From Planctomycetota bacterium (GTDB lineage Bacteria; Planctomycetota; SZUA-567; H5-PLA8), in contig JBBRPR010000007.1 in NCBI GenBank assembly GCA_038227875.1, positions 96,001 to 160,000 on the forward strand: a stretch of 64,000 nt of DNA. The letters run 5' to 3'. The notes under the pieces are model-generated. The model made no database searches. It saw only the letters and a program-made list of their open reading frames with translations, and was not told where the DNA came from. Positions 31,345-34,781 of the stretch are shown here, one piece after another (the stretch's first letter is position 1; each line of letters starts with the position of its first letter). The translations under genes and the position numbers were made by a program.

Positions 31345-32076
31345 TCAGATCCGCATCTTGAAATTATCCGCGTCATCATCTTTTTCTGCAGGCGGAGCGG
31401 CATCATTCGGGTCTTCTTCCGGGGCGTCTTTGATATGCAGAACCTTGCCATCCGCGCCGAGCAGCACGTCTTTGTTGCCAACACCCACGAGGAACAATTG
31501 CACGGTCGGCAGCTGGCTTTCGTCGGCCACTTTCTGAAAGTAGACGATATCTCCATCCTTCACCGCGTCGCGTGCAGCGGCGACGATCTCTTTGGGCGCA
31601 TCAGTCAGCGCGATTGTTTCGTAGACGTACTGAATCTTTCCATCGTCGTTGATCAGCGCTTCAAAGTGCTTCCCGCCGGACATGAAGAGCACGCTCACCG
31701 ACCAGTTGGCGCCTTCGTCGATGTCCGCATCGTCGTCCTTGTCGACGGCGACTTCCGCCGCGCGCTGGCCGATCTTGCCAGCAGGATCCATCTTGTCGTT
31801 ATCGTCATCGTCGTCATCATCGCCATCCGGCACCATCTTGCCGCCGCCGGCTTTCGCCTTGGGCTCCGCGGGCGTGGCGTCGTCGTCCTCGTCGCTCATG
31901 TCGACGGCGTCGATTTCCTTGGCGTCCGGCCAACGGCGCAGCACCGCCAACTTGGCTTTTTCTTCAGGAGTGGGCTGGAGATCGGCGTTGTTGTCGATGT
32001 CGTCCTGATCCGCGCGAGCTGCGAAGCTCAGTGCAAGGACGAGCAAAATCATGGTGGCGGAGAATTTCGTGCGCAT
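31345..32076 (-). CDS. Secreted, very acidic protein with PepSY-like segments
   Basis: Signal peptide ending ARA, Asp runs, FEALINDDGKI and VLLGADGKVL. Confidence 0.75.
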   Translation of the reverse strand: MRTKFSATMILLVLALSFAARADQDDIDNNADLQPTPEEKAKLAVLRRWPDAKEIDAVDMSDEDDDATPAEPKAKAGGGKMVPDGDDDDDDDNDKMDPAGKIGQRAAEVAVDKDDDADIDEGANWSVSVLFMSGGKHFEALINDDGKIQYVYETIALTDAPKEIVAAARDAVKDGDIVYFQKVADESQLPTVQLFLVGVGNKDVLLGADGKVLHIKDAPEEDPNDAAPPAEKDDDADNFKMRI

Positions 32077-32247
32077 GAATCAGCTCCGAGTCTTCCCCTC
32101 ACAAAACAACTTTATTACTATAACCAGCTAGACGGGCCTGAGTATTTAAAATCGCAGGAAAAGAGCAGAAAACTTTTTGTGTAAGCACGTGTGACACGGG
32201 ATTATTTGCACAAATTGCTTGGTAAACAACACGCGCAAGCGGTCGCA

Positions 32248-33678
32248 CTACATGTCTTCCAGCAGATGCCCCAGCTTGTTCTTCTTCGTCTTCAAATACC
32301 TGGCGTTATGACTATGAGCCACCATCTCGATCGGAACGCGTTCGATAATCTCCAAACCGTAACCGCCGAGTCCTACAATCTTGCGCGGGTTGTTGGTCAA
32401 CAGGCGGATCTTGCGGATGCCCAGGTCGACCAGCATTTGCGCGCCGATGCCGTAGCGGCGCAGGTCGGGCTTGAAGCCGAGTTCCTCGTTGGCCTGCACC
32501 GTGTCGCGACCTCGCTCCTGCAGTTCATATGCCTTGAGTTTGTTGACGAGACCAATGCCGCGACCTTCCTGCCGCATATAGAGGATGGCCCCCTTCCCCG
32601 CCTTCGCCACGGCGGCTTGCGCGGCGGCGAGTTGCTGGCCGCAATCGCAGCGCAGGCTGCCCAGGGCGTCGCCGGTCAGGCATTCGCTGTGGACGCGAAC
32701 CAGGACGGGGGCCGTCTGAATCGTACCGGGCTTCAAATCGCCCATGGTCATCGCAAGATGGTGTTCGCCGGTGTCGCCCAGCGCCGACTCGTAGGCGAAG
32801 AGCCGGAATTCACCGAAGCGTGTGGGCAGCGCAATTTCGGCGACGCGGTTGACCAGCTTCTCCGTGGCGCGGCGGTATTCGATCAGGTCGCGGATCGAAA
32901 CGATTCGGATTTTGTGCTCGGCGGCGAAGAGCTCGAGATGGCTCAAGCGCGCCATGCTGCCGTCGTCGTTCATGATTTCGCAGATCACCGACGACGGATT
33001 CATTCCCGCCAGGCGGCAGAGGTCCACGCTGCCTTCCGTCTGGCCGGCGCGGACGAGCACCCCGCCGTCGCGGGCGCGGAGCGGAAACATGTGGCCGGGG
33101 CGCGCGAGATCTTCGGGGCCGCTGCGCGGATCGATGGCCGTTTTGATGGTGTGCGCGCGGTCGGCGGCGCTGATGCCGGTAGTCACGCCTTTTCGCGCCT
33201 CGATGGTGACGGTGAAGGCCGTGCCGAAGCGCGCGGTGTTGGCGTGCGTCTGGAGCGGAAGCTGGAGCTCATCGCAGCGCTTTTCGGTCAGCGAGAGGCA
33301 GATCAGTCCACCGCCGTACTTGCGCATGAAGTTGATCGCCGCCGGCGTGATCTTTTCCGCGGCGATGACCAGGTCGCCCTCGTTCTCGCGGTCTTCGTCG
33401 TCGACGAGGATGATCATCTTACCGTCGCGCAAATCGGCGAGCGCATCGGGGATCGAACAGAAGGGGGAATTTTGATCGGGATGCGGCTGGCCGGGCTGCA
33501 GGGGCTGCAAGGGCGGGTGCTTTTTGCCGTGTGTCGCCTTGCCGGCCTTCTTCCAACGCGCCGCAACGGCCGCGCTGGCGATCGAGCTGCGCTGATTGGG
33601 CGTCAGCGCTCGGGCCCGAGCGTCTCCGCCCTTGGCTGCCGCTTGCGACGATCCAAACCCTGCCTGCTTTTTGCGCAT
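32248..33678 (-). CDS. ribBA: Bifunctional DHBP synthase / GTP cyclohydrolase II with an extra ~70-aa basic N-terminal extension
   Basis: [47 protein letters not shown] and LLTNNP. AAAGGAG RBS before ATG 33678. Confidence 0.97.
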
Positions 33679-33698
33679 TCGATTTCTCCTTTGCCCTC

Positions 33699-33771
33699 AA
33701 TTTACCGACGCAGGCAAGAATGTCAAAATGCTTGCTGGAGCAAGTACGACGATACATGCCAGGCAAGAATG
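33699..33771 (-). promoter_or_regulatory. Sigma70-type ribBA promoter with overlapping operator-like repeats
   Basis: TTGACA-N16-TAAATT on the - strand. GCAAGAAT-N6-ATGCTTGC flanks the -35. CAGGCAAGAATG occurs at 33711 and 33760. Confidence 0.7.
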
Positions 33772-33930
33772 AGATCCACGAAAAGTGACCCAAAGCGGCT
33801 ATGGAGAATCAGCCAGACAGCGCGTCCTAAGCAATTTAATTTTGAGTTTTGATTTTTGATTTACTTCACAACGGCAGCAATTGGGAATTGTCGTTAGGTG
33901 ATGGCAACGACTCAATACAATCAACGCGGC

Positions 33931-33964
33931 AATAAAAAAACGCGCCGCTTGCGCGGCGCGTTTT
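33931..33964 (-). terminator. Rho-independent terminator
   Basis: AAAACGCGCCGC-GCAA-GCGGCGCGTTTTTTTATT on the - strand. Confidence 0.9.
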
Positions 33965-33987
33965 AATTCAAACTTTCAACGTCCAAA

Positions 33988-34122
33988 TTAGTTGGACGCG
34001 ACGGACGGCGAGTTGACGGTGCGGCGGTAGTTGTCGCTGTGACAAGAATCGCAGTGATCACCACAGCCAGCAGTCACGACCAAAGCGACGACGGCGGCCA
34101 AAAGAACGAGAGCTTTGCGCAT
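33988..34122 (-). CDS. 44-aa lipoprotein with CxxCH motif (absent from the ORF track)
   Basis: MRKALVLLAAVVALVVTAG-CGDHCDSCHSDNYRRTVNSPSVASN, with GAGGAGG RBS and its own terminator. Confidence 0.85.
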   Translation of the reverse strand: MRKALVLLAAVVALVVTAGCGDHCDSCHSDNYRRTVNSPSVASN

Positions 34123-34339
34123 TGCAGTACCCCTCCTCATAAAGTTTTTCGCGCCACACGGCGCATGGGTTAATTTTCAACAGCGCACGGTAATGCAAAA
34201 GTTAGACCTGATTTAAAATGCGTCTTGTGCACCTATAAAGATGTCTATTTTGATCCCTAAAGACTAGTCGAAATTCGATCAACGTACACACTAAAATCAA
34301 TCGCTTGCTGTTGATTTTTTGAAGGGCAGAATATGGATT

Positions 34340-34684
34340 ATGGAGCCCGATCCCCCGAGGAAAATTCAGTTCCATCTCACCACCGCGCTGTTTGTCATGG
34401 TAGCGCTCGGCGTACTGACGCCATTCCTGCTGCGTTCGTTCCGCGTGTCCTTCCTGGACGGCGCGGCATTGGCGTATGCGTGCGCGCTGCCCATCCTGAT
34501 CGGCGCGCTGGAAGTCGAGTCCTACCTTCTGCGTCGCGCCGATCCCGACGCGAAATGGGAACGCCCACGCCAGGCCGCCACGCGGTTAATGGGCGTTTTG
34601 CTCTGTCTGGTTTTCGAATGGGCGGCGATCGGGCTATGGGCAATCTGCGTGGCGAAAGTCGTGGGTCCGGTCTTCCAGAAATAG
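34340..34684 (+). CDS. Small membrane protein with N-terminal KIQFHL motif
   Basis: MEPDPPRKIQFHLTTALFVMVALG, about 3 TM. Confidence 0.7.
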   Translation: MEPDPPRKIQFHLTTALFVMVALGVLTPFLLRSFRVSFLDGAALAYACALPILIGALEVESYLLRRADPDAKWERPRQAATRLMGVLLCLVFEWAAIGLWAICVAKVVGPVFQK

Positions 34685-34739
34685 TACGCCGAGGCAGGCA
34701 GATCCGCGATTCTGCTTTTCCCTTATTAAGGCTACACGT

Positions 34740-34781
34740 GGTAGCCCCGGCAGTTCATTTAAAGAGACTGCCGAGGCTACC
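34740..34781. repeat. GTAG-type palindrome between convergent genes (REP/terminator-like)
   Basis: GGTAGCCCCGGCAGT-N12-ACTGCCGAGGCTACC. Confidence 0.6.

Follow-up and report, generated by a model that had tools for sequence, protein, structure and literature searches.

Introduction

RibBA is an oligomeric enzyme of riboflavin biosynthesis in which a DHBP synthase domain is followed by a GTP cyclohydrolase II domain, and riboflavin synthesis (rib) genes can be under the control of a flavin mononucleotide (FMN) riboswitch. The ribBA gene analysed here lies in a 64,000-nucleotide (nt) stretch of a Planctomycetota genome (GenBank assembly GCA_038227875.1, contig JBBRPR010000007.1, positions 96,001 to 160,000; hereafter the window, numbered from its first letter), and its predicted product, P0001, begins with a foreign module of about 50 residues. 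An N-terminal module on a metabolic enzyme recalls PutA, a trigger enzyme whose N-terminal DNA-binding module represses its own genes; the ribbon-helix-helix domain of PutA is old and conserved, its binding is proven, and it comes with a metabolic signal. The module of P0001 resembles the first residues of P63C-domain proteins (PF10546; phrog_2384), a family for which the literature search listings name the domain and describe no function.

What might explain why an enzyme of riboflavin biosynthesis begins like a phage protein? A first, sequence-only reading proposed that a DNA-binding module and its operator had been fused to ribBA, and that the enzyme may repress its own gene. That interpretation is half right: module and putative operator were grafted, the graft corresponds to a truncated phage-type front end, and self-regulation is one possibility. 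The explanation that we prefer, with a probability of roughly 0.55, is that ribBA is a recent chimera formed by capture of the front end of a mobile-element gene, and that the appendage on the enzyme is a tolerated passenger. The capture of a P63C-type front end by ribBA, taken by itself, is very probable from the comparisons given below. The main alternative to the passenger is inherited self-repression, in which the peptide would read the captured operator.

Results

An intact RibBA with a foreign N-terminal module

All the sites that the sequence-only reading had listed, among them the RibBA open reading frame (ORF) with its ribosome-binding site, were found in place (Table 1). P0001 is the sole RibBA match in its own genome, a draft of 9.3 Mb in 176 contigs with 88% completeness. 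PF00926 and then PF00925 are each matched over nearly their full length, which makes P0001 a bifunctional RibBA by domain content, and its overall identity to relatives is 62-92% (62-81% for family relatives). Where it differs from canonical RibBA is in the foreign 50-residue head and in a phage-type promoter with a Shine-Dalgarno (SD) sequence. Of the roughly 70 extra residues initially assigned to the head, about 50 are indeed foreign, whereas residues ~52-77 are the basic, Pro-rich tail that is common to related RibBA proteins. A Pfam search of P0001 left residues 1-75 unmatched.

RibBA is present in 40 of 41 genomes of the class, a count that takes in the own genome; the unpublished genome G017 is counted only in the RibBA, order-wide motif and RF00050 tallies, and no conclusion depends on it. 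No RibBA among 40 related genomes aligns to residues 1-18, and the 17 best-scoring matches begin at residue 38 or later. Family relatives start with short basic tails, for example MKKKDASRKAPRRAG. The only other member of the 90%-identity cluster of P0001, the metagenome RibBA P0046, is 92% identical over 411 residues, and its N-terminus is without the module. Because so close a protein is module-free, and because the native start of the relatives is known, the module is, judged by these comparisons, a recent acquisition.

Where does the module come from? A phmmer search with residues 1-48 against 1.84 billion cluster representatives returned 44 matches at E<=1e-3 (best 2.3e-8), which are small proteins or N-termini of P63C-type proteins, nearly all of 58-230 residues; none of the 44 has RibBA length. 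In PHROGs the module matches phrog_2384 at positions 5-39 only (E 7.7e-6). Small-alignment scans of public contigs gave 18 genome, 42 viral and 46 metagenome loci with the motif. The first 60 motif loci include 28 ORFs of at least 300 residues and 28 small proteins of at most 130 residues. Of the 28 larger ORFs, 27 contain the Pfam P63C domain, which occupies roughly residues 200-310, and carry the motif right at the N-terminus. The suggestion that the KGG motif is typical of small basic proteins and of P63C N-termini was therefore borne out. In 20 of the 27 P63C ORFs the start of the next conserved block, (A/T)(T/K)H.G, follows within 30 residues of the motif; the window peptide likewise continues into the 'AGK-ATHG' stretch of P63C-type proteins and only afterwards diverges from them. 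In a 20-sequence alignment (A1), the window head keeps all 9 invariant positions, among them G17, G18, A20, R21, L25, A37, R41 and W42, and the 5 nearly invariant ones, A14, P27, R30, I33 and A34.

P0001 thus shares with P63C-domain proteins the first ~50 residues, with the motif and AGK..ATHG, and a promoter layout with ATRCTTGC boxes that is described below. It carries a complete RibBA instead of the rest: PF10546 is not matched in P0001, and the ~290-residue P63C body is also without counterpart. Since the phrog_2384 match is confined to positions 5-39, P0001 is a carrier of a fragment of a P63C-type protein and not a member of that family.

Within the lineage the module stands nearly alone. 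At E<=0.01 a search of the order's 19 other genomes gave no match to the motif, blastn of 33480-34000 against the own genome gave no second copy of the region, and a single-protein scan of genome contigs found nothing. Word-indexed protein searches with residues 1-75 or 1-52 gave no carriers of RibBA length or longer, which is weak evidence with so short a query. PF10546 was not found in the own genome, but the same search matched no control genome either, so that this says little.

AlphaFold2, given the same alignment, predicts the module as a two-helix hairpin, with helices at residues 10-24 and 27-44 (mean predicted local distance difference test score 73.5, about 91 in the second helix). 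Pfam and NCBIfam hold no family for the module, a PDB sequence search gave no match, a Foldseek search of the model against the PDB gave none either, as expected at such small size, and the best ESM Atlas score was 0.83, under the useful range. The description of the extension as a DNA-binding module gained nothing from the searches of Pfam, NCBIfam, the PDB and Foldseek, in which no known DNA-binding family or fold was matched.

The fusion in independent sequence and its junction

A chimeric gene in a draft genome could be an assembly or binning artefact, and the state of the draft leaves room for this explanation, which we nevertheless regard as hardly credible. A 1625-nt Logan contig from run X1, which may be the source sample, covers 33384-34100 without difference. 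From run X3, of another study, a 151-nt contig (33422-33572) bridges the junction with 3 differences, including a synonymous change at T49 and H50R, and a 150-nt contig covers 33774-33923 with seven differences; in run X2, of a third study, 33774-33937 is unchanged. Public-run contigs built independently, one of them from a different study, thus bridge the junction, and an in-frame join would be unlikely for a misassembly. The fusion exists in nature. The contigs of the other studies span 33422-33572 and 33774-33937, and the boxes lie outside those spans.

The breakpoint falls between T49 and P55, and two alignments are possible. In one, GGC-AAA-AAG of the window is matched with GGC-ATG-AAA-AAG, the sequence around the start codon in three relatives, and the join would be at native codon 2; in the other, a 19-residue stretch aligns without gaps to P0046 (13/19), and about 13 native codons would have been lost. 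There is no synteny with relatives past ribBA itself that would mark the upstream limit of the import.

The native start of ribBA in the relatives is of a different kind. In 8 of the 8 nearest relatives a TAnnnT hexamer stands 6-7 nt before the ribBA ATG with no SD sequence, against a background of 39 in 1611 ATG triplets, and the ribBA genes of these relatives appear to be leaderless. Seven more distant family members are without this pattern, and so is the window ribBA, in which 20 nt including AGGAG separate TAAATT from the ATG. These eight loci (L010-L017) each encode a short, basic tail at the N-terminus, and genus g10 shares a TGGATT-16-TATAAT promoter.

Could the enzyme be translated from the in-frame TTG at 33510-33508 (L57), with the upstream frame a relic that supplies only the promoter? 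The product would then resemble the tails of the relatives. However, the TTG has neither an SD sequence nor a -10-like element ahead of it, the ATG at 33678 has AGGAG at 7 nt, the frame from that ATG reads through without a stop, and it is kept over the junction in a second strain. We consider a start at the TTG improbable.

Upstream DNA homologous to P63C-type loci

A terminator-like hairpin (33937-33964) closes the upstream gene, so that ribBA needs a promoter of its own, and TTGACA-16-TAAATT is one of only 2 promoter-like matches in 32000-34300, and there is no other good match of the sigma-70 type nearby. Around it lie repeats of a CTTGC box. The pair GCAAGAAT-N6-ATGCTTGC spans the -35, with a further half-site GTACTTGC at 33747..33740, and an exact 12-mer, CAGGCAAGAATG, which reads CATTCTTGCCTG on the coding strand, is present at 33711-33722 and 33760-33771. 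Counted as 8-mers, the window has three ATNCTTGC or GCAAGNAT boxes (-92, -57 and -43) within 200 nt of the start, and GTACTTGC at -69.

Taken alone, the 12-mer repeat is only moderately unusual. With at most 1 mismatch, the window has 2 copies against 0.32 expected, and 2 were reached in 4 of 100 shuffles; the exact 12-mer occurs 3 times in the 9.3-Mb genome against ~0.9 expected, two of these at ribBA. Four CTTGC cores within 65 bp are found at 32 places genome-wide, and a cluster of three WTKCTTGCY is unique in the genome, for a pattern that was defined post hoc. The significance of the repeat comes from the presence of the same box upstream of other peptide-bearing genes. An RNA hairpin formed by inverted boxes was set aside as an explanation, as the boxes also occur as direct repeats and the predicted transcript starts downstream of those in the window.

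When window DNA (33520-33800) is aligned with five P63C-type loci, the elements come in the same order: TA(T)ACTTGC is followed, after a short spacer, by a second arm, then by a TTGAC-type -35, and finally by a T-rich stretch into the -10. The window TACTTGCTCCAGCAAGCA...TTGACA... stands opposite L203 TATACTTGCCCCAGCAAGTA, to which the central palindrome at 33728-33747 is homologous, and also fits the layout of L040, L198 and L043. Box 2 is in the same register as the L058 box TTGACATGCTTGCAT, and in the DNA upstream of acidobacterial P63C-type genes it is the TTGACT...TATAC region that stands opposite the promoter. In the donors a further box, GCAAGTAT, overlaps the -10; its counterpart in the window is degraded, and the SD sequence now occupies that place. 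By this homology, the motif was imported together with promoter and boxes as a single unit. That peptide and putative operator were grafted on ribBA together, as the sequence-only reading had it, is supported by the continuation of the peptide, by the upstream DNA alignment and by the module-free P0046.

The front end that was captured would span no less than 250 bp, about 33526 to 33773, and represent the 5' part of a phage or mobile-element gene for a P63C-domain protein, with ATNCTTGC boxes, the TTGACA/TAAATT promoter, AGGAG, the ATG and the first ~50 codons, fused in frame to the native basic RibBA tail. The captured signals would replace the leaderless promoter and start of the nearest relatives: transcription of ribBA would now begin at the captured promoter, and translation at the ATG at 33678. 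The resulting protein would be a complete bifunctional enzyme that bears a basic appendage of two helices, and the boxes would be the operator of the donor gene.

Pairing of peptide and box across the family

The alternative to the passenger takes the operator as still being read. The two-helix head of P63C-type proteins would read ATRCTTGC boxes at its own promoter, and the whole self-repressing arrangement would have been transplanted onto ribBA; RibBA, being oligomeric, would present several peptides and would repress through the boxes that overlap the -35, as a trigger enzyme. A survey of boxes upstream of genes with the motif, which had been proposed as a check, came out positive. In a non-redundant set (less than 15% shared 12-mers, metagenome loci added), a box lies within 200 nt upstream of 62/70 peptide-bearing P63C-type genes, compared with 1/18 without the peptide. 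With identical upstream sequences removed the figures are 51/59 and 1/19, where L041, L042 and L052, which do bear the peptide, are left out of the 19 peptide-less genes. For the scan with the P63C body only, 80 viral loci were examined, the best 80 of 497 confirmed.

The boxes are concentrated at the promoters. Upstream of 27 P63C-type genes, a total of 5,616 nt contains 53 ATNCTTGC or GCAAGNAT boxes (9.4 per kb), and the other 151,632 nt of the same loci contain 38 (0.25 per kb); one box or more precedes 24 of these genes, and two or more precede 22. A count of 7-mers that was blind to the pattern agrees, with pieces of TAT(G/A)CTTGC on top (ATGCTTG in 41/70 against 1.5 expected, TGCTTGC in 45/70 against 3.1). 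The distance from box to start codon is 20-90 nt, and both orientations occur (56 forward, 44 reverse); at the variable position, 100 family sites show G (78%) or A (22%), but in no case T. ATRCTTGC boxes are often paired about 48 bp apart, in public loci (L040-L242) as in the window (33711-33771). In the metagenome set a box is present in 38 of 46 loci, typically ATACTTGC near -68 and GCAAGTAT near -20; the 8 boxless loci are 5 small proteins with a C-terminal motif, 2 with less than 80 nt upstream, and 1 P63C-type gene. Box, promoter and head are, by these alignments and counts, one conserved unit, and the window holds one. The literature search listings contain no description of a peptide-box pairing and nothing on an operator function of ATGCTTGC.

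Several features speak for the peptide as reader. None of the 4 heads that lack the Arg-Trp pair has boxes, against 62 of the 66 that keep it. Peptide subtype tracks box subtype, in that GG(E/D)ARA...A(V/I) heads pair with ATA boxes and GG(V/L/A/K)ARA...KAA heads with ATG boxes. A box near -20 is also present at three short ORFs in which nothing but the peptide remains. No family of neighbouring genes was seen more than twice in 14 loci, so that no conserved neighbour offers itself as binder, and in acidobacterial genomes the P63C-type gene stands alone amid ordinary chromosomal genes. The window fits, with a box cluster unique in its genome to the ribBA promoter and every invariant residue of the peptide retained.

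Other evidence tells against a peptide that reads boxes. Co-inheritance can explain the pairing whatever the binder, because no more than 20-90 bp separate the boxes from the beginning of the head-coding DNA and everything lies within ~200 bp, and the counts overstate the independence of loci that are kin. The P63C body, absent from P0001, could be the binder. Stand-alone small proteins and those with a C-terminal motif are mostly boxless (boxes in 4/32 loci; 0/5 for the MPRRASKK type), no DNA-binding family or fold matches the module, the window boxes depart from the family consensus, and nothing ties repression to riboflavin status.

Not all heads stand on P63C bodies. Among BstA-type prophage defence proteins (phrog_6287), one representative match, P0043, has the same N-terminal peptide before a BstA-like body; 16 of 17 BstA-like viral loci are without the peptide, one is a truncated relic, and one peptide-less locus has a single box-like 8-mer at -183. 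In two viral contigs (L069 and L073) the P63C-type gene directly follows a CI-like repressor gene (HTH_3 and Peptidase_S24), and in L069 it also precedes an N-antiterminator-like gene; in lambdoid prophages, the position after the CI-like repressor gene often holds accessory or defence genes. The own genome has one other motif carrier, a 92-residue protein on another contig (L002, 759-1037 of the plus strand, contig C140) with a C-terminal motif and no upstream boxes. It belongs to a recurrent MP(T/R)RASKK... small-protein family that is also found in Thermoanaerobaculia, Acidobacteriota and soil contigs (L054-L057, L234, L238-L240 and L242), none with upstream boxes.

The peptide might also have another job on the enzyme, such as unspecific nucleic-acid or nucleoid binding or the binding of a partner, while something else reads the boxes. 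The peptide does occur in tandem in small proteins and before bodies with their own helix-turn-helix, namely P0044 (XRE) and P0005 (winged helix; a scan with P0005 found no loci), and related RibBA proteins already have basic tails of unknown role. This explanation has no specific support and leaves the pairing of box and peptide unexplained, and we rate it as slightly less probable even than the TTG start.

Riboflavin control and genomic surroundings

The sequence-only reading had pointed to the short predicted leader of ribBA, about 15 nt, which leaves no room for an FMN riboswitch. The FMN riboswitch (RF00050) was not found in the window or in any of 21 genomes (own and 20 relatives), in a search that was positive in 7 of 14 control genomes. 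Given this result and the leaderless ribBA starts of the nearest relatives, a short leader says nothing on the fusion, and the riboswitch argument carries no weight. The window ribBA has no feature in common with rib genes controlled by an FMN riboswitch.

The surroundings are those of an ordinary chromosome. Pfam searches of 19 neighbouring ORFs identified a GH4 glycosidase, AraC regulators, a glycosyltransferase and an HtrA-type protease, and found no phage gene among the 19. Directly downstream of ribBA (31345-32076, minus strand) is a gene for a 243-residue protein with a signal-peptide-like start, long acidic runs and no Pfam family. Upstream, the hairpin at 33937-33964 and an A/T-rich TTTGAGTTTTGATTTTTGATTT stretch at 33835-33862 have many short copies of 80-92% similarity on other contigs (blastn) and may be repeat families. 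A match to the int-alpA RNA (RF02996) at 34674-34751 (minus strand) scores 36.0 bits against a cut-off of 35.8; with no integrase or AlpA gene seen nearby, it is probably due to chance.

Table 1. Features of the ribBA locus in window coordinates.
Feature	Position	Strand	Basis
Chimeric ribBA ORF (P0001), 476 residues	32248..33678	minus	single open frame
GTP cyclohydrolase II domain, residues 278-449	32332..32847	minus	Pfam PF00925 (GTP_cyclohydro2), E 5.1e-71, 238 bits
DHBP synthase domain, residues 78-268	32875..33447	minus	Pfam PF00926 (DHBP_synthase), E 3.1e-85, 285 bits
Native basic/Pro-rich N-tail, residues 52-77	33448..33525	minus	common to related RibBA
TTG (L57), only alternative in-frame start ahead of the enzyme; no SD-like sequence upstream	33508..33510	minus	
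Junction zone H50-P55, donor fragment / native RibBA tail	33514..33531	minus	sequence comparison
Foreign module, residues 1-50: basic start, KGG..ARA..LTP..R..IA..ARW motif, then AGK-ATH	33529..33678	minus	5' end of P63C-type (phrog_2384) gene
SD sequence AGGAG, 7 nt ahead of ATG 33678	33686..33690	minus	sequence
Sigma-70-like promoter TTGACA-16-TAAATT	33699..33726	minus	scores 10/12
Box 2, CATTCTTGCCTG, core ATTCTTGC at -43; begins at last base of -35	33711..33722	minus	
Central palindrome GTACTTGC-TCCA-GCAAGCAT, half-sites -69 and -57	33728..33747	minus	
Box 1, CATTCTTGCCTG, core at -92; identical to box 2 and 49 bp upstream of it	33760..33771	minus	
Terminator-like hairpin ending upstream gene	33937..33964	minus	strong, GC-rich

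Discussion

If a P63C-type front end was captured by ribBA, is the peptide that came with it a passenger or a regulator? In the reading that we prefer, the appendage is tolerated, and the lasting effect of the capture would be the swap of expression signals. A passenger is the default because the enzyme already carries a disordered basic tail. The fusion is young, the donor box proximal to the -10 has been degraded, T occupies the variable position in 2 of the 4 window boxes against 0 of the 100 family sites, and motif proteins that stand alone mostly do without boxes. Other observations weigh against a passive appendage. The head retains its full complement of invariant and nearly invariant positions, and the frame over the junction is open in two strains. 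The window boxes are identical over 12 nt, where the family core is 8 nt, which a decaying orphan operator would not predict; the T that family sites never show can be placed beside this identity and the intact head on the same side of the balance. Across the family, the pairing itself suggests a peptide with a job at that promoter. The exact breakpoint and the upstream limit of the imported DNA are, moreover, not fixed.

It is in weighing the pairing against co-inheritance, kinship of the loci, the boxless small proteins and the P63C body as candidate binder, and in setting the box identity, the T and the intact head against a passive appendage, that we arrive at a capture that is very probable and at an inherited self-repression that is possible and, on balance, unlikely. 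The most complete form of that alternative, in which the KGG..ARW peptide and the ATRCTTGC boxes would make up a portable self-repressing cassette of ~250 bp that moved from a phage gene to RibBA, is a shade less likely still. Were autoregulation true, P0001 would be PutA-like, with a small helical module at its N-terminus and operators over its own promoter. Unlike that of PutA, the module would be a recent graft from a phage gene and is a candidate binder only, with no known DNA-binding fold and no evident link to flavin status.

The ribBA chimera could be viewed as a clean, datable case in which the expression signals and the N-terminus of a core biosynthetic gene have been replaced by a fragment of a mobile-element gene; it is made datable by a 92%-identical protein without the fragment and a second strain with it. 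The conserved pairing, across phyla, of a ~35-residue peptide that heads P63C-type phage proteins with an 8-bp box around their promoters extends the case beyond this locus. How this lineage controls riboflavin synthesis is a question raised by the missing FMN riboswitch and the leaderless ribBA of the relatives. If the cassette had been transplanted in working order, RibBA would limit its own synthesis in a lineage where no FMN riboswitch was found. If it is true that the peptide reads the box, the two would form an autoregulatory unit that is very small and can be transplanted, and in the RibBA fusion nature would have put the autonomy of this unit to the test.

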